54,623 nucleotides of DNA from the IMG/VR virus record IMGVR_UViG_3300042471_000954, positions 1-54,623 of that record; one strand, given 5' to 3'. Both the position numbers and the translations under genes were made by a program. This DNA comes from a virus (Duplodnaviria; Caudoviricetes). The notes beneath the pieces were generated by a model, which searched no databases, was not told the DNA's origin, and was given only the letters and a program-made list of their open reading frames with translations. Numbering within the stretch: position 1 is the first letter of the stretch; each line of letters starts with the position of its first letter. Below are positions 4,622-51,905 of the stretch, piece after piece.

Positions 4622-4759
4622 TTAGCGTTTGCCCTGTGGCTTAGGTCGTTGGCGCCGCTCCTGCTCGCGTTCGGCAGCGGCCATGCGGTTAGCCAGCTGC
4701 CGGGTTTGCACCGTCTCTAGGAGGGTTTCGATGGAGTCGGGTTGGGGGGTAGTGGTCAT
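4622..4759 (-). CDS. small hypothetical protein (45 aa)
   Basis: Hand-translated MTTTPQPDSIETLLETVQTRQLANRMAAAEREQERRQRPKPQGKR; ATGA overlap with upstream gene. Confidence 0.55.
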   Translation of the reverse strand: MTTTPQPDSIETLLETVQTRQLANRMAAAEREQERRQRPKPQGKR

Positions 4760-11063: not shown

Positions 11064-13928
11064 TCAACGCATCCGCGCCATGGTCTGCGCCAGCTTCAAG
11101 CCGGATCCATCCCCGCGCACCCCGACCGACACGTTCCACGCTTTGCGCCTCAGCTCGGCCACTTCCTGGCTCAGGTTTCCAACCGCGAGGGCCAGATGGG
11201 CTACTGCCGGATCGGACCCACCACGCAGCACGCCAGCGCCGCCGCCGAGGGCACCGGATTCCTTCAGGCGGCTGGTGATAGCAGCAGGGATCACCGTGCC
11301 TGGGGAGGGGGCCGTCCACAGGCTGTTGGCGGGCCGATTGATCAGGGACAGGGCGCCAGATGCTGACAGGAACGCCTCCTGGCCCAAGCTCATCCCGCTC
11401 GGGCCGTCGTTGATGCGGTACGTCTGGCCAGCATCCACAGGGCCACCCGTGAAGCGGGCAGGGGGGAGGCCAGAGGCTGCTGCCAGGGAGCGGTAGAACC
11501 TGTCGGCAGCGTTGGCCGCATTACCCATGTTGGTGCTGAGCCCTGCCGCCTGGCCCTTGGCTGCAGCGGTGGCCTTGGATGCCACGCCCATGAAGTCTTT
11601 GATGTCGTACGCGGCAGGCCCCACCCCCTTGCCCAGAGCCTGTCCGATCTCGTAGTACCCCCTGCCGGTGTCCCGCACCCGGAGGCCCACATCCTTGGCC
11701 AACTGGGCAAAGGCTCCCTGCTGGGCAAGTGGCACCTTCAGGCTGTCGCCCACGCTCTTGAACTGGTCGGCGGTGCCCTTGGCAGCCTTGAAGGTGCCAT
11801 CAGCGGCAAGTTGTAGGCCCTTTGCCTCGGCGGCAGCAAGGGCCCTATTGATTGCTTCCTCGTTGGTGGCATCAGCGATCCTGCCCTGTATAGGCTGGAT
11901 TTGCTGAAGGATCCCTAGGTTTTCATTGGCAATCTGCCTGTAAATATCCTTGATTTCTAGGTTTGCCCTTGCCGAGGCTTCCGCTTCTTTGTTGCTTTCG
12001 TTGATTGCCTTTGTTACCTCAAGCTCAGCCTCTTTGTATTCTGCGTTTGCTTTCCTTACCTCGCTGTTTGCCTCTGTAAGAGCCTGCTGCTGCTTCAATG
12101 CAAGCAGATCTCTTTCTAGTCCCTGCTGTGCTACTAATCCCTGAAACTTGGCGCTCATGGCGGCAGCTTCTATCTCTTCACCCCGGCGCTTAATGTCGTC
12201 TAACTCTCGCTCGCTTGCACCGCGCTTTTGTGCCTCCTGTAATTCGTAGTCGTTGCGACTTTTGATGATGCCAAAACGAGAATCTTCTAGGCTGATCAAT
12301 GCCTGGCCTAGATTGATGTTGGCTTGGCCAATTTGCAGCTGAGAGTCAGACTGCGCCTTGGCTAGCTTGCCCTGAGCATCCGCTATTTTCTGATCGTATT
12401 CAAGCCGCTCTAGCTGCTCTTTGTTATATGATTTTGCAAGGTCTAGAAGATCTTGGTTTCCTTGTGCTATTGCCTTGATTTGCTTCTCTTGCGCCTCCGT
12501 TAGCTGTGTTGTCCCAGTAAGTTGTGAGGTTATCCATTTTGCGCCAGATATAATAAGACTATCAAACCCCTCTTTTAGCTCGTAAACTGCCTTTGCTGGT
12601 GGGGTAAAAGTAAAAACGCTTTTAATGGCCCCGGCAGCTTCAACGGCTTTGCCTGTTAATGCTTGAACGAGCGAAATGCCCGTTGCAAGACGGCTTAAGA
12701 ATTCTCCTACCGATCCTCCTCCAGATGCTCCCAATACTGTAACAAGATTACTAGATGCGTTGGTAATTTTCTCAATTCCACCGGCAATGGTTGCCGAAGC
12801 AATTTCAGCGGCTGCCTTGGCCTGGCCGGTTTTCGTGATTTGATTATCCAGGAACTCGTTGTAATTTTTTAATTTATCGTTTGCAATTTGCTGGATGGGA
12901 GCTTGGGCTTCTACACTACCGGTCAAGATTGCAATGCTATCAGCTGACCCTTTGCTTTTTGTAACTACATCGGCTAGGAACCCAGCGAACCCACGCGCTT
13001 TTAGGCCAGTCAAGTTGTACTCTATTCCGAGCCTCTCTGCTTCATCCTTGGCTTGTTCTGAAGGTTTTATGATTGAACTGATGGCTTGCCTAAGTCCTGT
13101 AAATGTTTGCTCAACAGGAACTCCTTTCGCTGTAGCGTCGGCGATTGCAGCACTTAGCTCGCTCAAGGGAATATTTGCTGCAGCCGCAACGGCTGCAATA
13201 TTACCGATCTGCTTTCCAAATTGCGCAACTGTTATCTTGCCGTCATTTTGTGTTTGGATAAAGCTATCTACAATAGACGTAGCGTCTGAAGCTTCAAGCC
13301 CGTAAGAATTGATGACGGATGTTACAGCATCGGCTACAGTGGCAAGATCCGAGAATCCCCCGGTAGCGCCTAGCGCTGAAGCTCGCAGAATATCGACAAT
13401 CTCTGAGGTTTTGGTAAAGCCGCTTGATGCTACATCATAAGATGCTTGCATCAGCTCAACACGACTTACGTTGCCGTCTAGCTCTGTTGATAACTTCAGT
13501 AGTTCTTTGCTAAGTGCTTTTGAGTCAACGCCAAGGGTCCGCACCGCAGCGCTTGCGGTGTCAAGATCCATAATCTGCTTGCCAGCAAACTGAAGCGCTG
13601 CGCCAACCGTAAGAACCGAACCTGTTTGCAGCGCAAAGCTCTTCACACCATCAGTCAAGCTGCCCAGGATGCCATTGCCTTTACCCAATACGGAATTAAC
13701 ATCCCCTTGATTTTTGACGATGGTTTGTTGTGATTCGCCAAAGCTTTTTACTCCGCCTGTCGTCTCCCTAAGCTGTGTAGATAAGCCTGAGAGAGTTTTG
13801 TCGGTCCCGTTAAACCCGTCCTGGAAATTCTGCCCCGCCTGTTTCCCCGCCTGCCCGATCTGCCGCGAGGCATCGAGCACGCCTTTCACATCGGCGGTGA
13901 CCTTAACGACCCACTCATTGCCTGCCAT
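11064..13928 (-). CDS. tail tape measure protein
   Basis: 954 aa Ala/Gly-rich helical protein; TP901-type core (ASYDVASSG...TQNDGKITV...GLRQAISSI); C-terminal RFTGGPV..G..Y.IND motif. Confidence 0.9.
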   Translation of the reverse strand: MAGNEWVVKVTADVKGVLDASRQIGQAGKQAGQNFQDGFNGTDKTLSGLSTQLRETTGGVKSFGESQQTIVKNQGDVNSVLGKGNGILGSLTDGVKSFALQTGSVLTVGAALQFAGKQIMDLDTASAAVRTLGVDSKALSKELLKLSTELDGNVSRVELMQASYDVASSGFTKTSEIVDILRASALGATGGFSDLATVADAVTSVINSYGLEASDATSIVDSFIQTQNDGKITVAQFGKQIGNIAAVAAAANIPLSELSAAIADATAKGVPVEQTFTGLRQAISSIIKPSEQAKDEAERLGIEYNLTGLKARGFAGFLADVVTKSKGSADSIAILTGSVEAQAPIQQIANDKLKNYNEFLDNQITKTGQAKAAAEIASATIAGGIEKITNASSNLVTVLGASGGGSVGEFLSRLATGISLVQALTGKAVEAAGAIKSVFTFTPPAKAVYELKEGFDSLIISGAKWITSQLTGTTQLTEAQEKQIKAIAQGNQDLLDLAKSYNKEQLERLEYDQKIADAQGKLAKAQSDSQLQIGQANINLGQALISLEDSRFGIIKSRNDYELQEAQKRGASERELDDIKRRGEEIEAAAMSAKFQGLVAQQGLERDLLALKQQQALTEANSEVRKANAEYKEAELEVTKAINESNKEAEASARANLEIKDIYRQIANENLGILQQIQPIQGRIADATNEEAINRALAAAEAKGLQLAADGTFKAAKGTADQFKSVGDSLKVPLAQQGAFAQLAKDVGLRVRDTGRGYYEIGQALGKGVGPAAYDIKDFMGVASKATAAAKGQAAGLSTNMGNAANAADRFYRSLAAASGLPPARFTGGPVDAGQTYRINDGPSGMSLGQEAFLSASGALSLINRPANSLWTAPSPGTVIPAAITSRLKESGALGGGAGVLRGGSDPAVAHLALAVGNLSQEVAELRRKAWNVSVGVRGDGSGLKLAQTMARMR

Positions 13929-22989: not shown

Positions 22990-23163
22990 ATGCCTGAACC
23001 CGACTTTCGCGCCGCCCTGCAGCAGCTAGCCGATGCTATTGACGGGAGTGAGATCAGGTTTCCAAAGTACGACTGGCATGGGCAAGAAGGCACGTGGTTT
23101 CCCGAGCCAACCCACTGGCACCCCCTCCCCAGCCCACCGACCACCCCCAACCCCCATGCTTGA
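22990..23163 (+). CDS. small hypothetical (DFRA family, DUF551-like tail)
   Basis: MPEPDFRAALQQLAD...EPTHWHPLPSPP; ACCACCACCGACC leader. Confidence 0.55.
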   Translation: MPEPDFRAALQQLADAIDGSEIRFPKYDWHGQEGTWFPEPTHWHPLPSPPTTPNPHA

Positions 23164-23503
23164 CGCCAACACCCCCGCCTTCCGCCAGCAGTACCCCAAC
23201 GGCGCCAACGTCTACGACCGGCTGGGGCGCCAGTTGCGCGGCGTGGTGGCCTGTGACCCAGAGACGGGAGAGGTGATCACCTGCGACATGGGGTGGATCG
23301 CCAAGGCTTGGCTGAGGGTGCTGTGGGCCAAGGATCCATTCAGTCATGCTTACCGTTGGCGCCTGGGCCGGCTGCGGTTTCCATCAAGACTGCCCCGCTA
23401 CGAGGTAGTAAGTGGCGAGATCCTGCGCCGCCACGGCTTCCACCCCGCTCCGCTGACGGTCAAGCCCTGTCAGTGGCTTCACATCGGGATTGACAACCAC
23501 TGA
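23156..23503 (+). CDS. hypothetical protein
   Basis: MLDANTPAF...; overlaps upstream stop. Confidence 0.55.
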   Translation: MLDANTPAFRQQYPNGANVYDRLGRQLRGVVACDPETGEVITCDMGWIAKAWLRVLWAKDPFSHAYRWRLGRLRFPSRLPRYEVVSGEILRRHGFHPAPLTVKPCQWLHIGIDNH

Positions 23504-26808: not shown

Positions 26809-27723
26809 TTAGAGCTTCACCGCCTTGGGATGGGGCTTGCGGCGTTGGAAAAGGGACGGCTGCACCACCTCGACCGGTGCGGGCCTTGGCTGGCGGGGGC
26901 GCCGCTCACGGGGCACGGGGGCAATGGTGGCAACTTCGAGCCCTAGGAGCCCCTGGCGGAACTGCTCCAGCGTGCGTCCACGCAGCTGCGCCTTCAGGCG
27001 GTTGTGGAACTGAATCATCGGCCCCGAGGGGTAGGCCCGTTTGAATGGATCAGCCCCCCACCGCTCCAGGAGGCCACGATCAGCGGGGCGCAGGTTGGCG
27101 AACGCTGCATCGGTGAGGGCATAGAGCGCGGGGGCAAGGGCTGCCTCTGTTGCCATCGGCTGATGCTGGCTGAACAGGGTCAGCTCGTCTTCCAGCTCCA
27201 CCGTGCCGACCATGCCGCCGACCATCTCGGTGATCTCCTCCTCCGTGAAGCAGGGCAGGGCCTCGACAACCTGAGCTAGCGTCTGTCCCTCGGCCAGCAT
27301 CCGGCGAACACGGGGGTAGTGCTCACGCCACTTCGATGGCATCTTCACGTCGTAGCCGTGGTCCCTGATGTGGTGTTTAATAGCTCCCTCGATGAACATG
27401 CACACGCAGGTTGAGAGCGCATAGGGGCGATCTGTGGCGGGGTTAATCCTGTGCGGGTCGTAGCGGCGGCACCCGTTGATCAGCCCCTCCAGGGCGGGGC
27501 CGATGAAGTCTTCAAAGGGCCGGCTGCAGCGGCGGGACCACTTAGCAGCGGCTGCCTCAGCTAGCCCCTGGTTCTCAATAATCAGCCGCTCGGAGAGCTC
27601 AGTGCGCGGTGGTGCCCCAGGCTTGGCCGGTTGCTCCAGCGGCGCACCCTTACGCTCCCGGCGCCTGCGCTTGGGGGGCTCCGGGAGGGTATCGGTGGGC
27701 TGTGGCGTGAGGGTGGTGGTCAT
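26809..27723 (-). CDS. phage-encoded RNA polymerase sigma factor (SigF/SigB/FliA-like)
   Basis: Region 2 motifs LIIENQGLA...EDFIGPALEGLINGCRRYDP...LST....IEGAIKHHIRD. Confidence 0.8.
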   Translation of the reverse strand: MTTTLTPQPTDTLPEPPKRRRRERKGAPLEQPAKPGAPPRTELSERLIIENQGLAEAAAAKWSRRCSRPFEDFIGPALEGLINGCRRYDPHRINPATDRPYALSTCVCMFIEGAIKHHIRDHGYDVKMPSKWREHYPRVRRMLAEGQTLAQVVEALPCFTEEEITEMVGGMVGTVELEDELTLFSQHQPMATEAALAPALYALTDAAFANLRPADRGLLERWGADPFKRAYPSGPMIQFHNRLKAQLRGRTLEQFRQGLLGLEVATIAPVPRERRPRQPRPAPVEVVQPSLFQRRKPHPKAVKL

Positions 27724-30932: not shown

Positions 30933-31176
30933 GGGCCACCTCCTGCACGGTTTGCCCTGCCCCCGGCGTGTGGCACCCCACCCCGTCAAGCCAATCGGCC
31001 ACCTGGGAGGAGCCCCCGTGACGCTCCCTGAGCATGATGGCCAGTTCGTGGGCGACGGCGGCGGAGTCGCGGCGGCAGTCGCTGCAGATCGCCCCGACCG
31101 GGCATGGGCCGCCGGTTGGGCAGGCGCCACGGCACACCGCCAGGGCCAGGCGATCGGCGGGGGTGGGGTCAGGCAT
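30925..31176 (-). CDS. Cys-rich hypothetical protein
   Basis: MPDPTPADRLALAVC...C..C..C; overlapping coupling. Confidence 0.55.
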   Translation of the reverse strand: MPDPTPADRLALAVCRGACPTGGPCPVGAICSDCRRDSAAVAHELAIMLRERHGGSSQVADWLDGVGCHTPGAGQTVQEVAHD

Positions 31177-31423
31177 TGGCCCTCTCCAGCTCGGCGGCGA
31201 TGGCGAGGATTCGGGCGCGCGTCTCTTGCCGTTGCGTTCTGCGGAGGTACTCACATAGCGAGTCGTCCTCAGAGCAGTAAGGCTCATCCGGCACCACGTG
31301 ATCCGCAGCGGCACGGAGGGCGGCGGCGGCAATGATTCGGCGCCGCTCAAAGCCTGGGAGGCTGGCAACTTTTAGGATGGCGGCTTCAACCGCCTGCGCG
31401 GCGGGGGAGAGGGGGTGGGTCAT
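31169..31423 (-). CDS. hypothetical (LSPAAQAV family)
   Basis: MTHPLSPAAQAV...AAAALRAAADHVVP...ILAIAAELE; C-terminal part of track ORF 31169-31765. Confidence 0.55.
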   Translation of the reverse strand: MTHPLSPAAQAVEAAILKVASLPGFERRRIIAAAALRAAADHVVPDEPYCSEDDSLCEYLRRTQRQETRARILAIAAELERANA

Positions 31424-36472: not shown

Positions 36473-36964
36473 TCATGCGCTGGCCTCCCGTGGCAGCTCC
36501 AGCCCCAGCCGCTCCAGGGCCTCCACCACATCAGCCAGCGAGGTCACACCGAACCGCTTGATCCGCAGCAGATCCGCAGGGGTCAGGTTCAACAGGTGGT
36601 CTACCGTGCTCACCCCTGCCCGCTTGAGGGTGTTGTAGGCGCGGACGGTGCGGAGGTCTAACCGCTCGATCGGCACCGATGCCACGGTGGGCTCCGGGGC
36701 TGGCTGGGTGCTTTCCTGCACCTTGGCGGCAATCAATGCCTCCAACCGAGCCTCAACCTGATCTAGCCGGGCAGCCGTGCTAAGCGGTGCTGGTTCTGCA
36801 GCCACAAGGGATAGGTGTTCGCCCGTCCAGACTTTTTCCTGGGTGGTGAACCGGAACCCGCAGGCTTTGCAGACGCAGCGGCGCCGCTTGGCCTGTGCCT
36901 TGGGTTGATAGCGGGACTCAATGACCCGGTGGCCAATGGCTCCGCATTCGGGACAGGGGATCAT
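36473..36964 (-). CDS. NrdR-type Zn-ribbon fused to RNA polymerase alpha C-terminal domain
   Basis: CPECG...VIESR...RRRC.C..CGFRFTTQE plus IERLDL.TVRAYNTLKRAGV.TV..LL....DLLRIKRFG..SL.DV...L. Confidence 0.85.
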   Translation of the reverse strand: MIPCPECGAIGHRVIESRYQPKAQAKRRRCVCKACGFRFTTQEKVWTGEHLSLVAAEPAPLSTAARLDQVEARLEALIAAKVQESTQPAPEPTVASVPIERLDLRTVRAYNTLKRAGVSTVDHLLNLTPADLLRIKRFGVTSLADVVEALERLGLELPREASA

Positions 36965-37842
36965 GCCGCCACCCCTGAATCAAACAACGAAGCAGACTGG
37001 CCCTCCGCCTGCTCCAGGAATCGGGCAGCCTGGCGGGCGTACTCGGGCTTCAGTTCAACACCGATATAGCGCCGTCCCATCTTCACGGCCTGATAGCCGG
37101 TGCTGCCGATCCCGTTGAACGGATCCATCACCAAATCGCCAGGGTTGCTGTAGAGGGTCAGGCAGCGTTCAATCACATCCAACTGCAACGGGCAGATGTG
37201 TCGTTCATCTTCCTGTCCCTTGGCCATGCGACCGTTTAGCACCTTGGTCTGATTAACCTGCATCCAAACAGGCGAGGCCAGCTCCTGCCACATGCCCACA
37301 GGCAAATCTTCTGGATCGTGGGTGACTGGATCGGGGTTCTCCTGGTCCTTTCGGAAGAACAGCATGTAGTCAGGCATTCCCACTCGACTACGTGTGCTGT
37401 CTTTCTTTAGTTGCTTGTAAAGCAGGCCTAAGGCTTTGGTCCGCTGCATCTCAATCACAGGATCTTTCCAGATTGTGCAGCGAGCGTGGTAGACCCATCC
37501 GGCGTCCTGGTGAGCACGAACAAGGTCGCCTCCAAAGTCATGCAAACCGATGAATCCATCTTTGCTCTTGCGAGCTGGCAGGTCTGAACAATGCACGCAG
37601 GCAACGCGGCCAGGCTTAAGCACTCGATACAGAGCTTCCGTAAAATAGGCGTAATGCTCCATGAACTCTTCATGGCTGCCGCAGTTACCCATGTCCCGCT
37701 CAGAATCTGAGTAAACAAACAAATCAGAGAATGGCGGCGAGAAGATAGCAAGATCAATGATGCCGTCTGGCATTCCGTTCATTACTTCAATGCAGTCGGC
37801 CAGATAAACTGCCCAGCTGTGGCCTTGATAGTCAGGTTTCAT
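36961..37842 (-). CDS. DNA methyltransferase (N4C/N6A, beta class)
   Basis: FSPPF catalytic motif precedes DPFNGIGSTG SAM-binding motif; start ATG 37842. Confidence 0.9.
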   Translation of the reverse strand: MKPDYQGHSWAVYLADCIEVMNGMPDGIIDLAIFSPPFSDLFVYSDSERDMGNCGSHEEFMEHYAYFTEALYRVLKPGRVACVHCSDLPARKSKDGFIGLHDFGGDLVRAHQDAGWVYHARCTIWKDPVIEMQRTKALGLLYKQLKKDSTRSRVGMPDYMLFFRKDQENPDPVTHDPEDLPVGMWQELASPVWMQVNQTKVLNGRMAKGQEDERHICPLQLDVIERCLTLYSNPGDLVMDPFNGIGSTGYQAVKMGRRYIGVELKPEYARQAARFLEQAEGQSASLFDSGVAA

Positions 37843-39215
37843 TTGAGAAAATCGGGAAGGGTGACTTGACTTGTGCGTGCGTATGCCTTTTTGAACGCCG
37901 CTGATTGATGGCCATTCATCGCTTCGGCCATAGCTCGCTTCATGCGCTGATGATCCTGAGCTTTGCGCTGCACGTTGTTCCAGATTGATGTCTCCGTGTC
38001 GCTGATCACGACGTGACAAGTAACTGGATTGGTCTGCCCATACCGCCAGGCGCGTCGCACGGCTTGGTAGTGCTGCTCATAGCTGTGGCTGACACTGGCG
38101 AAGATCACCGTGTTGGCGTGCTGCCAGTTGAGGCCTAGGCCAGCCAGCTTAGGCTTGGAAACGATCACCCGCCGCCGGCCAAAAGTGAAGTCGTCCAGGG
38201 CGGCGATCTTTTCCTCTGGGTCCATGGAGCCATGCACCTCGATAGCGTCGGGGATGGACTGAGCGAGGGCCGATGATTCGCCGTTGGTTTCACACCAAAC
38301 GATCACAGCGCCGTCGGCGGCATTGGCGATCTCGGCGGCCTTAGCCACTCGATCATCCAATGTGAGCCGCTTCTCCTTGTGGATCGTAGTGGCGCTGCCA
38401 TCGGGGATCCTGAACAGCATCCCGTCGGGCACGTCCACGGTGATGTCAGCCGAGACAGTGTGCAGCTCATAGCTGAGCGGCGGCAGCACAAATCCTGAAT
38501 CGTCACCACCTAAATCGGATGGCAACGTGGCGGCCCTGGCCCAGCTGGCTACCCAGCCCCAGAAGTCAGCCTGAGCGTGCCCTTTCAGTCGCCAGTCTTG
38601 GCTGGCGGTGCTGGTGTCGTTGACGAACCACCGGCACAGCATCTCCATGCTCCCGAGATGGCCCAAGAACTCCGAGTGATTGCCCAGCTCCATGTGATCG
38701 TTTGGTGCTGGTGTAGCCGTGGCTGCCAGCCGGTACGGGGTCGATGTAAAGGCATCGCAAAGCAGGCGCTTGGTCGGGCCGGAAAACGCCTTAAGAATGG
38801 AGCTTTCATCCAACACGACGCCGCCGTAGACGCTGGGGTCCAGCTTCGGGAGTCGTTCGTAATTGGCGATGTTCACACCTGACCCGGCCTCTGATTGCTC
38901 GCGGATCACGCGGGCATCGACGCCGATTGCGGCGCACTCGCGCTGCATCTGCCTGGCCACTGCCAGCGGGGTCAGGATCAGCGCTGGACGGCCGGACTGC
39001 TGGGCAAACTCAGCAGCAGCAGCGGCCTCGACCCTGGATTTGCCCAGGCCAGTGTCCAGGAAGGCGGCAGCCCTGCCTTTCTCGCAAACAAACTGCAAGG
39101 TGGCCATCTGATGCGGGAAAAGGCTTGGCCACTGATTGGCAGGGGTAAATCCGTTCGAGGTTGCTGCGGTGCCCTTGCAAGCAATGAACTCCCGATAACT
39201 GGTGAGTGTTTTCAT
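37839..39215 (-). CDS. SNF2-like SF2 helicase
   Basis: LDTGLGKS, LDESS, TATPAPN, GLGLNWQ, QAVRRAWRYGQ. Confidence 0.9.
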   Translation of the reverse strand: MKTLTSYREFIACKGTAATSNGFTPANQWPSLFPHQMATLQFVCEKGRAAAFLDTGLGKSRVEAAAAAEFAQQSGRPALILTPLAVARQMQRECAAIGVDARVIREQSEAGSGVNIANYERLPKLDPSVYGGVVLDESSILKAFSGPTKRLLCDAFTSTPYRLAATATPAPNDHMELGNHSEFLGHLGSMEMLCRWFVNDTSTASQDWRLKGHAQADFWGWVASWARAATLPSDLGGDDSGFVLPPLSYELHTVSADITVDVPDGMLFRIPDGSATTIHKEKRLTLDDRVAKAAEIANAADGAVIVWCETNGESSALAQSIPDAIEVHGSMDPEEKIAALDDFTFGRRRVIVSKPKLAGLGLNWQHANTVIFASVSHSYEQHYQAVRRAWRYGQTNPVTCHVVISDTETSIWNNVQRKAQDHQRMKRAMAEAMNGHQSAAFKKAYARTSQVTLPDFLK

Positions 39216-39218
39216 CGC

Positions 39219-40358
39219 TCAAACCTCAGCCCAGTCAACCCGAACCGCCGGGTGCAGCGTCCCCTCAGCGATGGCGCGGGCGGCGGCGGCGGGATCCATG
39301 GTGGTGAGGGTTGCGGTAAGGGCAGCAACAAAGTCATCCCGGCGCTGCTGCTTGGCCTCCTCAGCCCTGGCAGCCGCCTCCCGCAGTTCCGCCTCCATCT
39401 CGGCCTGCTGCTTGACGCGAGCCTCTTCCCGAGCGGCTGCCTCCTCAGCCCGGCGCTCCGCCTCTTCCTGCGCAAGGCGAGCCGCCTCCACCTGAGCCAG
39501 TGCATGAGCTTCGCGGGCGGCGATTGCTTCCCGTTCCTTGCGTGCCTGCTCTTCGGCTTCCGCAGCACGCTTCTCTGCTTCCAGTTCACGGGCCAGGCGA
39601 TCGGCCTCCACGGCCTCCTGCTGCAACCGCGCAATGCGGTCGGCCTCCTCACGGGCTGCCTTCTCGGCGCGTAAAGCCTCCAGCTCCATGCGCTCAGCTT
39701 CCTGGGCAGCCAGGGTGTCGTGCAGGGTCTGCAGCCGCTCCAGGGCCTCAGCGCAGCGGTTGGCGCCAGCTTCGCTGAACTCCTCCAGCGTGGTGGGGTC
39801 GATCGTGCCTAGCTCTTTTATGCGGTCGTAAGCGTCTGAGACGGTTTCAACCCCTTCGGTGAGCGCAGCAATGCGATCCAGGACGGCCCGGTGCGCTTCG
39901 ATGCGGGCCTCTTCCTTGGCTTCAATCGCCTTAATGGCCGTTTCGTGGGGCTCGATCAGCCCTTGAACGGCTGCTTCTAGGAGCTTGGCGCTTTCATCTA
40001 CGGCTTTGCCGCGCTCTATGTGAACCGCCTTGGCGTCCTTCCTGGCTCGCTCAATCTTGCCCTTAAGGCCACGCAAGCCGTGGACGTAGGAGCGGGCTTG
40101 TCTGTTGTCCCACTTGTCGTCGTAGTCAAAGACCTTGCCGGGGGCCTCTCCTTCGGCAATGGCGATGTCGCAGGCGATTGCTTCCCATCGGGTGATCGCC
40201 TGCGCTTCGGCTGCCGGAACGATGGCGGCCTGGGGGGCGGCGGGGGCTTCCGTGGCGGCTGGGGCCTCGGTGGGCAGCACCTCTGCGGTAACGGCTGGGG
40301 GTGCTGCGGTGGCGGCCTTAGCGGTTTTGGCTCTGGTCTTGGTGGTGGTGGCGGTCAT
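39219..40358 (-). CDS. coiled-coil phage protein
   Basis: IERARKDAK...GKAVD..AK pattern followed by a long E/A/R coiled coil; start moved to ATG 40358. Confidence 0.7.
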   Translation of the reverse strand: MTATTTKTRAKTAKAATAAPPAVTAEVLPTEAPAATEAPAAPQAAIVPAAEAQAITRWEAIACDIAIAEGEAPGKVFDYDDKWDNRQARSYVHGLRGLKGKIERARKDAKAVHIERGKAVDESAKLLEAAVQGLIEPHETAIKAIEAKEEARIEAHRAVLDRIAALTEGVETVSDAYDRIKELGTIDPTTLEEFSEAGANRCAEALERLQTLHDTLAAQEAERMELEALRAEKAAREEADRIARLQQEAVEADRLARELEAEKRAAEAEEQARKEREAIAAREAHALAQVEAARLAQEEAERRAEEAAAREEARVKQQAEMEAELREAAARAEEAKQQRRDDFVAALTATLTTMDPAAAARAIAEGTLHPAVRVDWAEV

Positions 40359-40450
40359 GTGGTGGTGATCGTTTCGGAACGACCTAAGTACGATACCATT
40401 TTGAAACCGCAACGGCTTAGGCCAGCGGCAATTCATCACGAAACACCACC

Positions 40451-41098
40451 ATGGCAACCGCTACCAAGACCAAAACCCAGGCCCCTGAGGAGGCCATCAG
40501 CATCAAGGCGCCGGATTTCCGGTTCCTGGAGATCAACATCCGGGGCACGGCCCCCCTCGTCGTGAACCGCTTCTCAGCGAAGGCGATCGAGATGATGCGG
40601 GCCACGCAGGAGGCAGGCAGCGCCGCAAAGTCCAAGAAGGTGCGGGAGCCGAAGGACTTTGATGCCCTGTTTGAGAACGCCAAGCATGTTTCAAACGAGG
40701 GCTGGGAAGGCATCCACGCTGCCGCTTTCCGCAATGGCGCCATCAGTGCCTGCCGGGCTGTGGGCTACAAAATGACCCATGCCAAGCTCGCGTTCAGCGT
40801 GCTGCAGGATGGCTTTGATCGGGTAGACGGCGCCCCGCTGGTGCGCCTTTCCGAGGGAGTGGCTGAGCAGTGGGTGGCTCCAACCCGGAACGCTACGGGC
40901 GTGGTTGATCTGCGCTGCCGCCCGATGTACCGGGAATGGGCTGCCGTGTTGCGCATCCGGTATGACGCGGGGATGCTCAGCTCTAGTGATGTCGTGAACC
41001 TGATCAGCCGGGTAGGTCTTCAGGTGGGCATCGGCGAAGGGCGCCCCGATAGCAAGGCCAGCGCAGGCCTAGGCTTTGGCCTCTTTGAACTTATCTAA
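40451..41098 (+). CDS. stand-alone Cas7/RAMP-like RNA-binding protein
   Basis: RAMP hallmarks: IRGTAPL (beta1), GIHAAAFRNGAISAC (P.S..KG-like helix), RCRPMYREW, C-terminal G-rich loop GLQVGIGEGRP....GLGFGLF. Confidence 0.75.
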   Translation: MATATKTKTQAPEEAISIKAPDFRFLEINIRGTAPLVVNRFSAKAIEMMRATQEAGSAAKSKKVREPKDFDALFENAKHVSNEGWEGIHAAAFRNGAISACRAVGYKMTHAKLAFSVLQDGFDRVDGAPLVRLSEGVAEQWVAPTRNATGVVDLRCRPMYREWAAVLRIRYDAGMLSSSDVVNLISRVGLQVGIGEGRPDSKASAGLGFGLFELI

Positions 41099-41112
41099 CA
41101 ATCGGATTACGT

Positions 41113-42062
41113 GGGCCATGGTTGCGTCTGCTGCCATGGCCTTGCAGGCATGGTGCGGAAGGCGTGTCCGGGGCTCGCAAGGGTTGACGCGGCAGGCATG
41201 GCCCGGTCAGGTCGGAACGGCCAAGCCGGGAGGGCGTGGCAGGCACGGTGTGGCAGGGGAGGCCAACCATGGTCGGGCCGGGAACGGCAGGCATGGCTTC
41301 GAGGGGCTTGGCGAGATCTGGACTGGACGGGCACGGCAGGCATGGCTTCGGAAGGCACGGCCAGGCCAGTTCTGGCAGGCAAGGCGTGGTCAAGCGTGGA
41401 AGGTCTGGCACGGCTGGCTAGGTGTGGTCGGGCTAGGGCAAGGCACGGCTGGCAAGGTCTGGTGGGCACCTCTGGCGGGGCATGGCAGGCGAAGCAACAA
41501 GGGCATGGCTGGGTCTGGTGTGGCAGGGTGCTGCAGGCATGACTAGGCGCGGAAGGACAGGTTCGGCAGGCAAGGCAGTGGTGGCAGGGCCAGGACCGGA
41601 CTGGCAGGCGTGGCACGACGTGGCGTTGAACGGCGGGGTTGGCAGGCACGGAGTGGCGAGGTCAGGAGCGATCGAGGCACGGCATCGGACGGCAGGCATG
41701 GTCAGGAAGGCAGGGATCGGCAGGCAAGGAAAGGCGTGGCCTGGACAGGCGTGGCTGGCAAGGCGAGATCTGGCGCGGAACGTCTGGCGCGGCACGGCAG
41801 GCATGGCACGGTCTGGATGGGTAGGGCACGGCAGGACTGGCTAGGAAGGCCTGGCGGTGTACGCCGTCGCAGGCTCGGCGTGGCTCGGCAAGGCGCGGCA
41901 TGGAAGGGCATGGCAGGCAAGGCAAGGAACGATCGAGGATCGACCGGGCGTGGCGCTGCTGGCCTCGCTTGTTGGCGCAAGGCACCGCACGATGCGGCTC
42001 AGCTTGCGTGTTGCGATTGCCAAATGGCAGCAGAATGGGGGCTTGAATGGGCCCCCTCATTC
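41113..42062 (+). ncRNA. putative guide-RNA array of GG(C/T/A)NN pentamers in ~20 units delimited by GGCWGG
   Basis: Example 41872-41915: GGCTC GGCGT GGCTC GGCAA GGCGC GGCAT GGAAG GGCAT GGCA. Bounded by hairpins at ~41113-41141 and ~42033-42062. Periodicity is directly visible; RNA status is inferred. Confidence 0.65.
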
Positions 42063-42077
42063 CTATCCCCTGAACCC

Positions 42078-42635
42078 ATGGATTTCATCAAAGCTGAACC
42101 TGAATACGTCTTCCGAATTGAGGATGGCGAGGAAGCGATGGGCGTCGATGCTCAGACCGCTGGCAGCGAGCTAGACCGCATCCGGCGGCGTGATGGCACG
42201 ATCCGCCCTGCTGTGGTGGTTGACGAGGCCAGACCGGAGCAGGCACCGCTGCATCCGGCGTTCGAGTGGCGCGACCCGGTGGCTGCTGAGCAGTGGCGCG
42301 AGCATCAGGCCAGCACGCTGATCAAGGTGGTGCGGGTGGTGCCTGCTGCTCCTGTGGAGCCCCGCGTGGCCTCGGTGCGGCCTGTCACCCAGCCGGTGGC
42401 CCCGTTGGTGGAGCGCTACGACCCGATGGCTAAGGAGGTGCTGGAGGCCGTGGGCTTGGTGGTAGAGGCCCGCCGCAGGGTTGAGGAGCTGAAACTACGC
42501 ACCCAGCGCATGGGTGATCGCAAGTCGATGGCTGTCCTAGGAGTGGCGTTTGGGATGCTCGATGAAGCCCATGAAGCGCTGACCAACTGTCAGCTCAGTA
42601 GCACATGGGAGCGAGAACTACAGCAGGCCCGGTGA
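42078..42635 (+). CDS. conserved phage protein, partner of the RAMP/array locus
   Basis: G.EL.RI....G.I.P..VVDEARP...PLHPAFEW.D..AAEQWR..QA..LI; start moved to ATG 42078. Confidence 0.75.
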   Translation: MDFIKAEPEYVFRIEDGEEAMGVDAQTAGSELDRIRRRDGTIRPAVVVDEARPEQAPLHPAFEWRDPVAAEQWREHQASTLIKVVRVVPAAPVEPRVASVRPVTQPVAPLVERYDPMAKEVLEAVGLVVEARRRVEELKLRTQRMGDRKSMAVLGVAFGMLDEAHEALTNCQLSSTWERELQQAR

Positions 42636-42654
42636 GACTGGAACAGAGATCGAG

Positions 42655-42678
42655 GGGGCCGTGGTTGGCCCCTTTTTT
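42655..42678 (+). terminator. rho-independent terminator closing the RAMP operon
   Basis: GGGGCC-GTGGTT-GGCCCC-TTTTTT. Confidence 0.85.
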
Positions 42679-42704
42679 ATGAGCGGCTCAACGGTGACCG
42701 GGGG

Positions 42705-42980
42705 TCAGAGGTGATCGCTGGCCCGCTCCATCCACGCCTCGGCGTAAGCCTGCACCTCGGCCAGCTTGCGGAACATTTCCGCCCGCTCGTCTCGGGCCTG
42801 CTGCCAGGCAGCATCGCCCTGAGGGTAGAAGTCGCGGGCGTTGCAGGTGGCGGCCTGGAGGGCATCACTGGCCCTGTCGATGGCCCGGTAGACGGCGTGG
42901 TACTCATCGGCCAGGGACTTGGCCCCGGTGCCGTTGAGGTGGATCGTGGGGAGGGCGTAGGCGGTGCTGGTGGCGGGCAT
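42705..42980 (-). CDS. hypothetical protein
   Basis: LPTIHLNGTG...NARDFYPQG..AWQQAR.ER. Confidence 0.65.
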   Translation of the reverse strand: MPATSTAYALPTIHLNGTGAKSLADEYHAVYRAIDRASDALQAATCNARDFYPQGDAAWQQARDERAEMFRKLAEVQAYAEAWMERASDHL

Positions 42981-43040
42981 CGGTCGGAGGCGGTGGGTTG
43001 GTGGTGTGGTTGCCGGATAGGCTCCGGCGGGCCGTGGGGG

Positions 43041-46091: not shown

Positions 46092-46904
46092 TCAAGCGGC
46101 AGCCGGAGCATCCCAGGTGGCCGGCAGATCGGGGTCGTCGTCGGACTCGGCGGCATCGTTGCTGGCTGCAGCAGCACCGGCAGCGTTCCACTTGGCTACC
46201 GAGGCATCGCTCACGCCAGCGGTGGCCAACTTGCGCTGAATGTCGGCAGGAAGGCCAGCAATGGCGGCTGAGGCGCCTTTGCTCAGTTCATGAGCCATGG
46301 CGGCAATTCCGGCTTCGGTTAGCCCAGCCTCGCGACAGCGCTTGATGGCGGTCGCCAGGGTGATACGGGCATCGTTGGCGGCGTTCTGAGCTGGTGTGGG
46401 CTTGGCGGCGTGTGCTGAAGTCTTTGGTGCTGCGCTGCGAGCCGCAGTCTTGGCAGACAAAGGATCAGATTCGCGGTGGGGATTCTCTACGGGTTCCTTA
46501 GCCCAGAGTTGCCAGGCCAGGCCAAACGAGGCGGCGGCGGCGGTGCATAGGCAGCGGCGGTGGGTGTCGGTCAGGTCGCGGGCGTCAATCTTGGCGAGGG
46601 GAACCGCTGCGTTGCGGTTGTCCATCACCGCCTGGGGGAAGTCAGGGGTGACAGAAGCACCGGGGCCCTCGAAGTAGCCGACCACATATCCGGTGCCGTT
46701 AGGGGCCTCCCATACGTGCCGCCCTTCGGTGGTAGGGCGAAGGTGGAACTGCCAGCCGGGAGCGTGCTCACGCAGGAGCTGAGCAGCGCGGGCCCAGTTG
46801 ATGTAGTCAGCCGCGTAGGTGCCAGTGCCTTTGGTGTCAATGTCGGCGGCGCTGATCACGCTGCCCAGGTTTGGCGGGGCCAAGGGGCCCGAGGCTTCGG
46901 TCAT
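46092..46904 (-). CDS. single-strand annealing recombinase (Sak/Rad52-like, putative)
   Basis: DYINWA...QAVMDNRN..V...DARD.TD..RRCL....A..FGLAW.LW; upstream of ssb and rusA. Confidence 0.7.
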   Translation of the reverse strand: MTEASGPLAPPNLGSVISAADIDTKGTGTYAADYINWARAAQLLREHAPGWQFHLRPTTEGRHVWEAPNGTGYVVGYFEGPGASVTPDFPQAVMDNRNAAVPLAKIDARDLTDTHRRCLCTAAAASFGLAWQLWAKEPVENPHRESDPLSAKTAARSAAPKTSAHAAKPTPAQNAANDARITLATAIKRCREAGLTEAGIAAMAHELSKGASAAIAGLPADIQRKLATAGVSDASVAKWNAAGAAAASNDAAESDDDPDLPATWDAPAAA

Positions 46905-47152
46905 GGGAAGGTCGGTGGTGGTGTTGCCAGAGCCTGGCCGTAGGGCTGTCCCCTGGCTTTGCAATTCTACCCCATGCCTAAGCCGTTTGGGAACCGCAAC
47001 GGCTATGCTGCCCACGTCAGCCGCTTCGCCTACCCCTATCGCGTTATGCACTTCCTGCATATTCGTTAGGCTTTCGCAACATACTTGCGAGATTAAAGGG
47101 CCTTAACTGCATCCCCGTAGCAATTCTGCTGCAGCCCGAGGCATATGCTTGC

Positions 47153-47168
47153 GGGGGGGGGGGGGGGG
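47153..47168 (+). repeat. G16 homopolymer tract
   Basis: 16 consecutive G. Confidence 0.9.
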
Positions 47169-47201
47169 CTGGAGTGTACTTCCACCACGCCGTTTCGCAG
47201 A

Positions 47202-47420
47202 ATGTCAACCCCCCCGATCCGCATCCACGCAGCAAATCAGGAGCAGGCCGATACCGTTTGGCGTGCCCTGTGCGAGCAGACCGCCATCACCGAGGCTGAG
47301 GTCTGGCTAAATGGCGCCTACCTGTTCCACGTGGTCAGGCACGGCGGCGGGATGCTGACAACTCAGCGTGAAGCTCAGCCGGTCCATACTCCCCTTCCGG
47401 TAACCCTCTTAGCTGCCTGA
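47202..47420 (+). CDS. small hypothetical protein
   Basis: MSTPPIRIHAANQEQAD...; 3' end overlaps the repressor-like gene. Confidence 0.45.
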   Translation: MSTPPIRIHAANQEQADTVWRALCEQTAITEAEVWLNGAYLFHVVRHGGGMLTTQREAQPVHTPLPVTLLAA

Positions 47421-48183
47421 CGGTTTCAGCCAACAAAAACAACTCCTTCTCCAGCTCAGCCTTGGTGTAGTCGGCAGTGCCGATGATCACGTTGCGCAGC
47501 TGCTCGCGGCGATCAGGCGAAGCTGAGGAGGGGTAGGCAGACAGCACGGCATCGAGTGCCTCGCGCATGGATCGCCCTTCACCCATGCGCTCCTGAGCCA
47601 GCCGGTCAAACAAATCGGCCAGGGCCTGGCTGAGACTCCGGGCTTCGCTTGGCGACAGGTTCACGTCACCCAGATAGGGAAGCACCAGATAGCCCGCCTG
47701 CAGGTCGCAGAAATCCGCGTAGTTGAGGGCTTCATCCGTGTGGTGCGGATGGTGAAGCCAGATTGCGTTGTTCAACCACTGCTCCTCGATCCGGTAGGCG
47801 CTGTGGGGGCCGTAGCGCCTCATGCACACCTCGGGGCCTCGTTTTTGCCATAGCCAGATCGCCTCGTTGGCACCGCCGAGGGCATCAAGGTTCCGGTGTG
47901 ATGGCTTGACGACCGATCCGTTGCGCAAGTGGCTCAGCTGCGGCGACGACAGCCAGCCCTTCTCGCTCAGGGCCCAGTCGGCAATGGAGCCCAGTTGCTC
48001 ATGGGAGAGGCCGGTACGGGCCAGCCAAAAATTCAGCACGGCCGAAAGGTGCTGCCGGCCCATCAGGTGACGGCGGGATGAAAGCTGGCGGCCTGGGGGG
48101 AGGGAATCGGGCACGGTCGGGGATGGTGGTGGTGGTAGGTCGGGCCAGTCGAGCGCCTGGCGAAGGTCCGTAATGACTTTCAT
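47335..48183 (-). CDS. XRE-like transcriptional regulator (repressor candidate)
   Basis: WLARTGLSHEQL.......WLSSPQLSHLRNG HTH-like; divergent from replication operon; start uncertain. Confidence 0.55.
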   Translation of the reverse strand: MKVITDLRQALDWPDLPPPPSPTVPDSLPPGRQLSSRRHLMGRQHLSAVLNFWLARTGLSHEQLGSIADWALSEKGWLSSPQLSHLRNGSVVKPSHRNLDALGGANEAIWLWQKRGPEVCMRRYGPHSAYRIEEQWLNNAIWLHHPHHTDEALNYADFCDLQAGYLVLPYLGDVNLSPSEARSLSQALADLFDRLAQERMGEGRSMREALDAVLSAYPSSASPDRREQLRNVIIGTADYTKAELEKELFLLAETVRQLRGLPEGEYGPAELHAELSASRRRA

Positions 48184-50068: not shown

Positions 50069-50820
50069 TCAACATCAAGCAGTTTCACGCAGCCGTCACC
50101 TCGCTGATGCAGCTCCTGCCGATGAGCAAGCAGCTCACCGGATCGGCCTTGACGATGGCCTGGGACACCTTCCCCGAGCGGGCGAAGATCGAACTCACTG
50201 ACGAAATCCTGCTCTACGCGGTTCAGCAGCGGGTGCTCGACTCAGAGCCACAGAGGGACATTGCGCCTCACATAGCGCTCCTTCGCTACGTTTATCCGGT
50301 TAAGCGAACAACAAAAGAACAGCGTGGATTAGAGACTTTTACCGATCAGCCCTTGTTGGACAGAGGGCTGCGACCTGATTTAGCTCAACGCATGGCCCGC
50401 CGTGATTGTTTCCACGAAACTGCACCGGTCCGGGATGAAGTGAGGCTGGATACGACCCCGCGCCTTCCCGAGGGAGCCGGTGGCAACGGCCCACCGTGGC
50501 TGCAGCAAACGGACGAGCAGCGGCGGGCTCACCTGCGGGAGGTGATCAAGGCTGTGGAGGATCTGCGAGCTGCTGGCGTTGACACGGGCACCTGGACGCC
50601 TCTGCAGCTGAACATTGGTCGCTCTTTTTTCAAGCAGGTGCTGATGGGCGCCCCGTTCCTGACGGAAACCAAAATCGAAACCGTTGCCGCCTGGGTCTTG
50701 CGCAATGGCCAGACCGTGGACCGGATGCTGCAGGAAGCCCTAGAGGGCGAGGCTACGAAGCCTTCCGCCGAGGGGTTGATGGCTGACTTACTGGAGCCTG
50801 TTACCAGGGGGCTCCGGTGA
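50065..50820 (+). CDS. hypothetical (helicase-loader position)
   Basis: GTGA-coupled to initiator; function assigned by position only. Confidence 0.55.
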   Translation: MINIKQFHAAVTSLMQLLPMSKQLTGSALTMAWDTFPERAKIELTDEILLYAVQQRVLDSEPQRDIAPHIALLRYVYPVKRTTKEQRGLETFTDQPLLDRGLRPDLAQRMARRDCFHETAPVRDEVRLDTTPRLPEGAGGNGPPWLQQTDEQRRAHLREVIKAVEDLRAAGVDTGTWTPLQLNIGRSFFKQVLMGAPFLTETKIETVAAWVLRNGQTVDRMLQEALEGEATKPSAEGLMADLLEPVTRGLR

Positions 50821-51905
50821 TGGCAGTCCTCCGCATGATCGACACCTTCAGCGGGATCGGCGGCTTCAGCCTTGCCGCCCGCTGGCTGGGTGGAATTGAA
50901 ACCGTGCACTTCGTGGAGCGCGAGCCGTTCTGCCAGCGCATCCTTTCCAAACACTGGCCCACCGTTCCCATTCACGATGACATCTGCACCTTCCAACCCC
51001 CCCCCAATTCAGCCGACATTGTTTGCGGTGGATTCCCCTGTCAGGACATCAGCCAAGCGGGAAAGGGTGCCGGCCTGGCTGGCGGCCGATCGGGCCTGTT
51101 CTACGAACTGCTCAGAATCGTTCGCCTGGTGGGACCGCGCTACATCGTCTTGGAGAACGTCGCAGCGATCACTTACCGAGGGATGGACGACGTTCTCGGA
51201 GCGCTGGCCGAGGCAGGGTATGACGCTGAATGGGCGTGCATACCGGCAACGGCTGTGGGTGCCTGCCATCAGCGAGACCGCTGGTGGTGCGTTGCCTACG
51301 CCAGTGGCGCAGACCGGAGCAGGCGGCCCGAAGGGGTTGGACGGGGGCAGTGGGGCCCGGCAGATGCTGACGGATGCAGGCTTCCCAAGGGCGGCAGGGG
51401 CGCCGAGCAGCCTGCCTACGCCGCGCACATGCTCAGCAATGGCGGCCCAGGTCAACAGCAGGGGCAACCTGGACGGCGATCGGTTTACGAATTTGGAGAC
51501 GGTCATCGGGCGGATGCTTCCGACCCCATCAGCCTGCCTGGCAAACGACGGAGAACGAACGGAGACGTGGCTGGCCAGGCGGGAGCGGGTCAAAGCCAAA
51601 AGGATCAACGGCAACGGGATGGGAATGCCGCTGGCAATTGCGGCGCAACTCCTGACCCCATGCGCCAGCGACTGGAAGGGCCGGACGAACTGGGAGGCAG
51701 CGGAGCGGCATGGCCCGCAGCGATTGCCCGATTGTCTCCCGACTGGCGCAGCTATCTATCTGAACCCGTCCTTCGTCGAGGAGATGATGGGCTATCCGGT
51801 CGGGTGGACCGCCTGAAGGCGCTGGGCAATGCCGTGGTGCCTCAGGTGGCGATGGTGCCGCTGGCGCGGGTGCTGCAGCTGGCCGGTTCCATGGGGGGCC
51901 GGTGA
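50817..51905 (+). CDS. C5 cytosine DNA methyltransferase (alpha chain)
   Basis: FSGIGG (I), GGFPCQ (IV), ENV (VI), HQRDR (VIII), LGNAVVP (X). Confidence 0.9.
   Translation: MMAVLRMIDTFSGIGGFSLAARWLGGIETVHFVEREPFCQRILSKHWPTVPIHDDICTFQPPPNSADIVCGGFPCQDISQAGKGAGLAGGRSGLFYELLRIVRLVGPRYIVLENVAAITYRGMDDVLGALAEAGYDAEWACIPATAVGACHQRDRWWCVAYASGADRSRRPEGVGRGQWGPADADGCRLPKGGRGAEQPAYAAHMLSNGGPGQQQGQPGRRSVYEFGDGHRADASDPISLPGKRRRTNGDVAGQAGAGQSQKDQRQRDGNAAGNCGATPDPMRQRLEGPDELGGSGAAWPAAIARLSPDWRSYLSEPVLRRGDDGLSGRVDRLKALGNAVVPQVAMVPLARVLQLAGSMGGR
50977..51816 (+). CDS. nested alternative-frame methyltransferase beta chain (TRDs plus motif IX)
   Basis: +1 frame ORF with four L[PL]TP repeats and LNPSFVEEMMGYPVGWT; start uncertain (track gives 50872). 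Confidence 0.7.
   Translation: MTSAPSNPPPIQPTLFAVDSPVRTSAKRERVPAWLAADRACSTNCSESFAWWDRATSSWRTSQRSLTEGWTTFSERWPRQGMTLNGRAYRQRLWVPAISETAGGALPTPVAQTGAGGPKGLDGGSGARQMLTDAGFPRAAGAPSSLPTPRTCSAMAAQVNSRGNLDGDRFTNLETVIGRMLPTPSACLANDGERTETWLARRERVKAKRINGNGMGMPLAIAAQLLTPCASDWKGRTNWEAAERHGPQRLPDCLPTGAAIYLNPSFVEEMMGYPVGWTA

Follow-up and report, generated by a model that had tools for sequence, protein, structure and literature searches.

A plus-strand island with a pentamer array

The sequence window analysed here is the whole of IMG/VR virus record IMGVR_UViG_3300042471_000954 (54,623 bp; CheckV completeness 100%), and the element of interest is a plus-strand island at positions 40451-42678, in which a gene for a 215-amino-acid (aa) RAMP-like protein is followed by a long array of GG-headed pentamers and by a second gene of 185 aa. 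We consider that this locus very probably represents a Viral Interference Programmable Repeat (VIPR) system, a class described in 2026 (10.64898/2026.04.26.720920, 10.64898/2026.04.26.720927, 10.64898/2026.10.15.759431). In the accessible text of these preprints, to which our statements on published VIPR systems refer throughout, the class is defined by a minimal RAMP termed Vipr, usually a single vap gene, and intergenic vrRNAs built of YNNGG repeats, residing mostly in viral or proviral genomes and lacking cas genes (10.64898/2026.04.26.720920).

Most genes between ~700 and 48,000 of the window are carried on the minus strand, and minus-strand open reading frames (ORFs) adjoin the island on both sides (39219-40355/40457 and 42705-42980). 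The island itself consists of the RAMP-like gene, here called vipr (40451-41098), a non-coding stretch (41099-42077), the accessory ORF (42078-42635), and a hairpin followed by six T residues (42652-42678). A sequence-only reading of the window had described such a self-contained unit amid minus-strand genes, and all four of its parts were recovered at or near the positions in which it had placed them. The features of the locus are as follows:

40356..40450, plus strand: divergent intergenic region between the minus-strand ORF (end 40355/40457) and the vipr ATG, presumed promoter or leader
40451..41098, plus strand: vipr, ORF call, 215 aa, predicted minimal RAMP (Cas7-like)
41134..41930, plus strand: putative vrRNA array, ~0.8 kb of GGYNN pentamers and units of four nucleotides (nt), defined by periodicity, shuffle control and parsing
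41931..42077, plus strand: non-repeat 3' module of the array, defined by conservation among clade sequences, with a hairpin at ~42041-42060
42078..42635, plus strand: vap-like accessory gene, ORF call, 185 aa, predicted helical protein
42652..42678, plus strand: intrinsic-terminator-like hairpin and T run closing the unit, from the sequence and its predicted fold

The 0.8-kb region consists of GGY/NN pentamers arrayed on the same strand as vipr, the repeat by which VIPR loci are recognised (tandem YNNGG, equivalent to GGY/NN, in at least four units within intergenic DNA flanking vipr; 10.64898/2026.04.26.720920). Between 41134 and 41960 we counted 94 GG..GG pairs at a lag of five, as opposed to 34.3 +/- 6.2 (maximum 60) in 1000 mononucleotide shuffles, and the autocorrelation of GG peaks at lag 5 (0.41) and lag 10 (0.31). 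Position 3 of the 94 pentamers is occupied by C in 60, T in 15, A in 14 and G in five, and all four bases occur at the two positions that follow, such that a GGH consensus describes 89 of the pentamers and the published GGY consensus 75. The register of the array is broken by ~28 four-nt units (GGCAGG occurs 14 times and GGAAGG six times; GGCT is also found among these units), resulting in in-phase GGYNN runs of 3-9 units joined by four-nt units, mostly GGCA. Upon inspection of the junctions, of which GGCAG/GCATGG is an example (the slash marking the boundary), one G was found to be common to both of the adjoining runs. Because GGCAG/GCNNN junctions constitute an exact -1 register shift, the autocorrelation shows additional peaks at lags 9, 14, 19 and 24. 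The hexamer GCAGGC occurs 16 times in the array, with its first five copies spaced 47-49 nt apart. The GGHNN array of the sequence-only reading therefore holds as regards its periodic GGH, and gives way as regards its single register, the array being staggered. No Rfam family was detected at the gathering threshold across the whole window, CRISPR repeats and hammerhead ribozymes included, and relaxing the threshold to E<=1 over 40000-43000 gave just one chance-level microRNA match and no indication of a hammerhead-interspersed array.

Following the last repeats, a module of ~140 nt (41931-42077) could be aligned in 14 of 14 clade sequences. It includes a hairpin, GGGGGCUU-GAAU-GGGCCCCC (~42041-42060), that is maintained among these sequences through G-U/G-C changes and one double change, and the folding energy of the module as a whole is not unusual (z = -1.0). 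This module may serve as a tail to the last guide, terminate the array, or form the leader of the vap gene. The unit is closed by a GGGGCC/GGCCCC stem and six T residues, confirming the terminator that had been noticed from the sequence; a simple terminator scan missed it. A promoter scan of 40000-43000, which excludes cyanobacterial and phage-sigma promoters, returned zero sigma-70-type sites.

The RAMP-like protein, its partner and their relatives

Searches with the 215-aa protein returned 0 matches in Pfam and no Cas model in PADLOC, and among PHROGs it was assigned to a family without a name (phrog_4652; 6e-15). The protein nevertheless belongs to a large family, with 4399 matches at E<=0.001 among 4738 candidates, corresponding to 2413 cluster representatives at 50% identity. 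An alignment of 88 homologues (alignment A1) was used as input for AlphaFold2, and yielded a model with a predicted local distance difference test score (pLDDT) of 94.2 and a predicted template modelling score (pTM) of 0.86. The model comprises a beta-alpha-beta core, a beta-hairpin at ~138-160, a helix at 178-192, a G-rich loop (GIGEGRPDSKASAGLGFG) and a last strand. Foldseek comparison with the PDB gave 50 matches at E<=0.001; those listed, the top matches included, are Csm3/Cas7-type subunits from complexes of types III and VII. Consistently, alignment of the model with 48,161 representative chains using VIA-align matched residues 20-215 to Csm3/Cmr chains with Z scores of 11.5, 11.4 and 10.4, and the ranking consists of CRISPR RAMPs in all of its top 35 rows and in nearly all of its top 50. 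The RAMP/Cas7 fold that had been proposed from sequence motifs is thus borne out by the predicted structure.

At the level of sequence, the sole match of the 215-aa protein in the PDB is the Vipr protein of SUSP1 (36pp_D), with an E of 0.071 for the single sequence. A profile of 89 sequences again retrieved this protein alone, with an E of 2.2e-6 over the segment from thumb to G-loop; SUSP1 is absent from the tblastn matches of the 215-aa protein. Among the SUSP1 residues described as essential or base-contacting (10.64898/2026.04.26.720927), R138 and R179 correspond in the resulting alignment to R157 and R198, the former nearly invariant and the latter invariant in A1, and D177 is aligned to E196. 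According to the model, the protein is a minimal RAMP of the Vipr type, with a single RRM bearing a G-rich loop and a thumb.

The 185-aa protein encoded downstream matches phrog_15946 (1.9e-18) and has no family in Pfam, and a sequence search of the PDB gave nothing meaningful (best E 0.17). Its AlphaFold2 model is helical (pLDDT 72). With this model, Foldseek found no match in the PDB at E<=0.001, one viral protein without a name in BFVD (1.3e-4), and only viral clusters without names in the ESM Atlas. Homologues of the protein possess a conserved core, VVDEARPExAPLHPAFEWRDPVAAE, and retain the N-terminus MDF..IKAEPEY as their start. We also observed that the accessory frame stays open into the array (41610-42635, 341 aa from a GTG start), and that some database entries for this protein are 271-285 aa long (P0271, P0275); gene callers probably annotate part of the array as protein.

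To place the locus among its relatives, we collected 91 related loci, comprising 80 from IMG/VR, nine from a genome collection, and those of Cyanophage Cy-LDV1 and Mycobacterium phage Quico. In 83 of the 91 loci the vipr homologue has a plus-strand pentamer array no more than 1.5 kb away (77 downstream, 14 upstream), the sequence-only reading having suggested exactly this comparison, and a minus-strand array was found nearby in only four. Among the eight loci without an array, four end less than 226 nt from the gene. A homologue of the accessory protein was identified by tblastn beside vipr in 62 of the 91 loci. The grammar of the array also extends across relatives: among the 4271 units of 108 distinct arrays, 3519 (82%) have C or T at position 3, GGCA accounts for 452 of 708 four-nt units, and successive GGCAGG motifs are spaced by 5k-1 (4 modulo 5) in 231 of 429 cases. 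This GGCA-punctuated pattern is visible by eye in both Cyanophage Cy-LDV1 and Mycobacterium phage Quico. Together, these observations demonstrate that gene and array have remained paired throughout the family, in the cyanophage relatives as in the mycobacteriophages.

Six close arrays were sufficiently similar to be aligned (alignment A2), and differ from one another by whole blocks of ~48, 47, 38, 34 and 14 nt bounded by GGCAGGC. Variable columns in this alignment are infrequent at the two G positions (7/74 and 9/75; 10-12%) and more frequent at positions 3, 4 and 5 (25/75, 21/75 and 20/74, respectively; 27-33%), with position 3 varying as much as the NN positions within this close set.

Further details of individual relatives were recorded. 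In Cy-LDV1 (BK059895.1, 30500-32110), g34 is 53% identical to the 215-aa protein and g33 is the accessory homologue, with one array located between g34 and g33 and another after g33; the locus lies between a cI-like repressor region and an excisionase. Using tblastn, homologues of the 215-aa protein were also found in 27 Mycobacterium phage records (including Quico, Florinda and Saal) and in five Gordonia phage records, at ~29-35% identity. Quico, a Cheoctovirus (NC_028751.1, 37290-38755), carries a GGC-NN array with GGCA punctuation upstream of gp57, followed after gp57 by a short accessory homologue, gp58, and the locus adjoins Cro, antirepressor and Xis genes. In four close relatives (L045, at 4690-4830, L007, L042 and L004; A2 columns ~38-190), vipr and the array have a short hydrophobic ORF between them, which starts ATGGATGACCC, is rich in Leu, Ala and Val, and is absent from the window and from L006.

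Host and genomic setting

Evidence on the host comes from three directions. Within a phage collection, the best matches of the portal protein are the cyanosiphoviruses S-CRES3, S-CBS2, S-CRES1/2 and PSS2 (35-38% identity); the Vipr nearest to this one in the genome collection (95%) is encoded on an 8-kb contig binned with a metagenome-assembled genome (MAG) of the Synechococcaceae; and DNA of the locus is present in many lake-water metagenomes. Given the portal relatives, the Synechococcaceae MAG contig and the lake-water occurrence, the host is likely a freshwater picocyanobacterium. The designation of the virus as a cyanophage in the sequence-only reading is supported by these lines of evidence, all of them indirect.

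The window encodes a portal protein, large terminase, tape measure, baseplate-like, minor head and capsid proteins, in addition to a sigma factor, RusA, an O-like initiator, a helicase and two methyltransferases. The gene resembling an RNA polymerase sigma factor (26809-27723, minus strand; phrog_36098 at 2.9e-14) is flanked by those for the terminase and the portal protein. An SNF2-type helicase and the two DNA methyltransferases are encoded at 36961-39215 (minus strand) and 50817-51905 (plus strand), and the helicase and methyltransferase ORFs at 36961-38019 and 37839-39215 overlap by ~180 nt, which could reflect a miscalled start or a fusion in relatives. When a looser GG-lag-5 threshold was applied to both strands of the window, five stretches passed; of these, 31063-31217, 47061-47255 and 23048-23228 were rejected as further arrays, containing only G-rich bits or a poly-G run on inspection, which left out 11546-11687 (minus strand). 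A run of 17 G residues at 47153-47169 is intergenic, between the minus-strand ORFs 46092-47060 and 47335-48183, and may be a slippage-prone tract or an assembly artefact.

Assignment to VIPR and comparison with known systems

In published VIPR systems, one Vipr protomer binds each repeat, with GGY held by the protein (10.64898/2026.04.26.720920, 10.64898/2026.04.26.720927), and for SUSP1 Vipr these protein-RNA contacts have been seen by cryo-electron microscopy (cryo-EM; 10.64898/2026.04.26.720927). It is the NN dinucleotides that pair with double-stranded DNA, one base of the target being skipped at each repeat, and binding represses transcription, the natural targets being competing satellites and prophages (10.64898/2026.04.26.720920, 10.64898/2026.04.26.720927). 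The published definition of the class fits the locus, and the only protein of known structure that the 215-aa protein matches in sequence is a Vipr, which agrees with the resemblance to VIPR that the sequence-only reading had tentatively noted. We therefore conclude, with high though not complete confidence, that the locus is a VIPR system in the complete genome of a tailed, probably picocyanobacterial, lake-water phage. The suggestion that it might be wholly new falls away, this kind of system having been published in 2026: the locus adds a member to a known, recently described class, and is not a new kind of system.

By analogy with the work on SUSP1 and Pseudomonas fulva, the array would be transcribed, and Vipr protomers would polymerise on the transcript, one per pentamer, holding GGY and presenting NN. 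The NN dinucleotides would then read double-stranded DNA with one base skipped per repeat, the bound complex would silence competing phages, prophages or satellites at the level of transcription, and the accessory protein encoded downstream would enhance this repression. The scheme advanced from the sequence, of one subunit per pentamer with a protein-held GG(Y), a non-contiguous NN code and silencing without a nuclease, matches what is published for SUSP1, and for the present clade it would apply by analogy. Metatranscriptome contigs overlying 40647-40797, 41009-41159, 41144-41245 and 41749-42262 (that is, vipr, the vipr-array junction, part of the array, and the array-vap junction), the last of which belongs to a close relative of the window, give a weak hint that the array is transcribed.

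A number of observations weigh against this assignment. In the profile search the match to SUSP1 Vipr spans just ~55 C-terminal residues, and W178 of SUSP1, the Trp that stacks on G2, is aligned to Gly197, such that this contact is not conserved. With 3-9 pentamers, the in-phase runs are shorter than those of SUSP1 (9-16), and the array is without 3' tails for individual guides, its units abutting at GGCAGGC junctions. Structure searches of the PDB, BFVD and the ESM Atlas revealed no recognisable DNA-binding fold in the accessory protein. The RNA signal over the array consists of short contigs from two metatranscriptome runs of different studies, which carry no information on ends or strand and could derive from DNA carry-over. 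Further, the window and the 91 loci (0.71 Mb, arrays masked) were searched for matches to twelve in-phase guide runs under rules skipping 0, 1, 2 or 3 nt, and no target, including self-targets, was found in this local set, the best matches under the 1-nt skip being equal to those under skips of 0, 2 and 3 nt. Guides did match at two short sites immediately upstream of vipr (~40385-40420), as would be expected by chance in a database of 0.71 Mb. Exact gapped patterns searched against IMG/VR, with no mismatches allowed, gave 0 matches with 18 fixed bases and five with 16 fixed bases, which we estimate to be approximately the chance expectation.

Of the alternatives, the best surviving one, which we nonetheless regard as improbable, is that the pentamer region functions as DNA, in the form of iteron-like binding sites or a G-quadruplex-prone tract, and that the RAMP-like protein is unrelated to it. 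With 375 G in 827 nt on the array strand, G-quadruplex-type structures are conceivable; also, the neighbouring genes are associated with replication and recombination (helicase, methyltransferases, RusA and O-like initiators), and transcription of the array is not proven. However, the array adjoins the RAMP gene on the same strand in the 83 loci noted above and minus-strand arrays are confined to four, an arrangement that is expected of co-transcribed RNA and needless for a DNA site. Such repeats are moreover used as RNA in characterised homologous systems, where vrRNA repeats co-purify with Vipr (10.64898/2026.04.26.720920), and the strict 5-nt GGY/NN grammar with its variable NN matches the protein-RNA contacts seen by cryo-EM (10.64898/2026.04.26.720927).

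We give still less credence to the possibility that the locus is a degenerate or minimal CRISPR-Cas remnant (e.g. type III- or IV-like) composed of an orphan Cas7 and a decayed array, an explanation to which the best structural matches of the protein (Csm3, Cmr4/6, Csf2 and Cas7 chains) might lend themselves. Against this, a repeat search detected no repeat-spacer units of CRISPR size, only the 5-nt periodicity, and PADLOC identified no core cas gene (cas1-cas10) among 45 ORFs of at least 150 aa; the one finding of this kind was a replication-initiator-like ORF with weak helix-turn-helix-type matches to the accessory Csa3/CasR models. Together with the Rfam search, these results agree with the sequence-only reading, which had seen neither cas genes nor a true CRISPR repeat. 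The 215-aa protein itself has neither a PADLOC Cas match nor a Pfam Cas7 match, and its sole sequence match in the PDB is a Vipr. As the architecture is conserved in 83 of 91 loci, it is not a product of decay. Finally, the view that the region is coding, whether for a G-rich repeat protein or for additional N-terminal sequence of the 185-aa protein (41610-42635, 341 aa), is hardly credible: several long ORFs do cross the array on both strands and some accessory database entries are longer (285 and 271 aa), but open frames are expected in a stretch so poor in A and T, the accessory N-terminus is conserved as a start, and a 5-nt period that cannot hold codon register, together with indels between close relatives that are not multiples of three (~47, 38, 34 and 14 nt), effectively excludes coding function.

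The VIPR assignment is of interest in several respects. The class, presented in preprints of April-October 2026, has been put forward both as the viral system from which CRISPR RAMPs descend and as a new code for programmable recognition of DNA. To it, the present locus brings a complete genome of an abundant freshwater phage, and the protein family to which it belongs is large. It also illustrates that a reader working from raw sequence could recognise a real RNA-guided system.

With respect to other RNA-guided systems, the locus resembles TIGR-Tas, as mentioned in one preprint, in being non-CRISPR and in placing a short-period tandem array beside an effector; TIGR-Tas differs in its 18-nt period and in the fold of its effector, Tas, to which no similarity was seen among the proteins here (10.64898/2026.10.21.760802). 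The backbone subunits of Class 1 CRISPR systems (Csm3, Cmr4 and Cas7, of types I, III, IV and VII) share with the 215-aa model an RRM core, a G-rich loop and a thumb hairpin (VIA-align Z 9-11.5). Cas7-type subunits polymerise along their guide RNA at a fixed nucleotide period. In CRISPR this period is 6 nt, with one flipped base and a contiguous spacer, whereas here it would, by analogy, be 5 nt, with three bases held by the protein and two reading the target. Unlike Class 1 CRISPR, this locus is without Cas5, Cas6, a large subunit, adaptation genes and a repeat-spacer array.

The closest likeness is to VIPR itself, of which 667 systems in seven types, with vap1-6, have been published (10.64898/2026.04.26.720920). 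To the type II systems of SUSP1 and the Pseudomonas fulva prophage the locus corresponds in its minimal RAMP with G-loop and thumb, in which the thumb Arg and the acid and Arg of the G-loop align, in its same-strand GGY/NN repeats beside the gene, and in being a phage-borne, two-gene locus with an accessory gene and without cas genes or a CRISPR array. Sequence similarity to SUSP1 Vipr is, however, at the profile level only, over ~55 residues, with Gly in place of W178. SUSP1 possesses four separate vrRNAs of ~100 nt with 9-16 repeats each, every one ending in its own invariant 3' tail with a pseudoknot (10.64898/2026.04.26.720920), whereas the present locus has one continuous array of ~0.8 kb with GGCA punctuation and a single end module, in the order vipr-array-vap; the ~100-nt vrRNAs with invariant structured tails that characterise type II are lacking, no repeated tail being found between units.

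Published VIPR arrays may consist of vrRNAs that are separate and tailed (type II) or single, may be interspersed with hammerheads, or may be staggered, the vrRNAs then overlapping by 1 nt, and small-RNA sequencing has confirmed only the hammerhead and single-vrRNA forms (10.64898/2026.04.26.720920). The array described here fits the staggered form, with pentamer runs delimited by GGCA units such that the last G of one run is the first G of the next, and the 1-nt overlap matches the GGCAG/GCNNN junctions, a likeness drawn from the legend of fig. S18 alone (10.64898/2026.04.26.720920). A possible, if rather doubtful, extension to this comparison is that in the clade formed by the cyanophage relatives, Cy-LDV1 and the Cheoctovirus mycobacteriophages, guides are packed head to tail in one transcript with GGCA as punctuation, and that either guides of 3-9 pentamers are freed by cutting at GGCAG/G or the RNA stays uncut and Vipr filaments form on it one run at a time. 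In the latter case, the -1 register shift would end one Vipr filament and seed the next. Cy-LDV1 and Mycobacterium phages such as Quico can be cultivated, which makes the processing and targeting of staggered arrays directly testable in these phages. If this arrangement is correct, a single phage would hold ~16-28 guides within 0.8 kb, gained and lost as units in the manner of spacers, and GGCA punctuation would represent a means of delimiting guides unlike either the tail and pseudoknot of type II or the hammerhead forms of other VIPR arrays.

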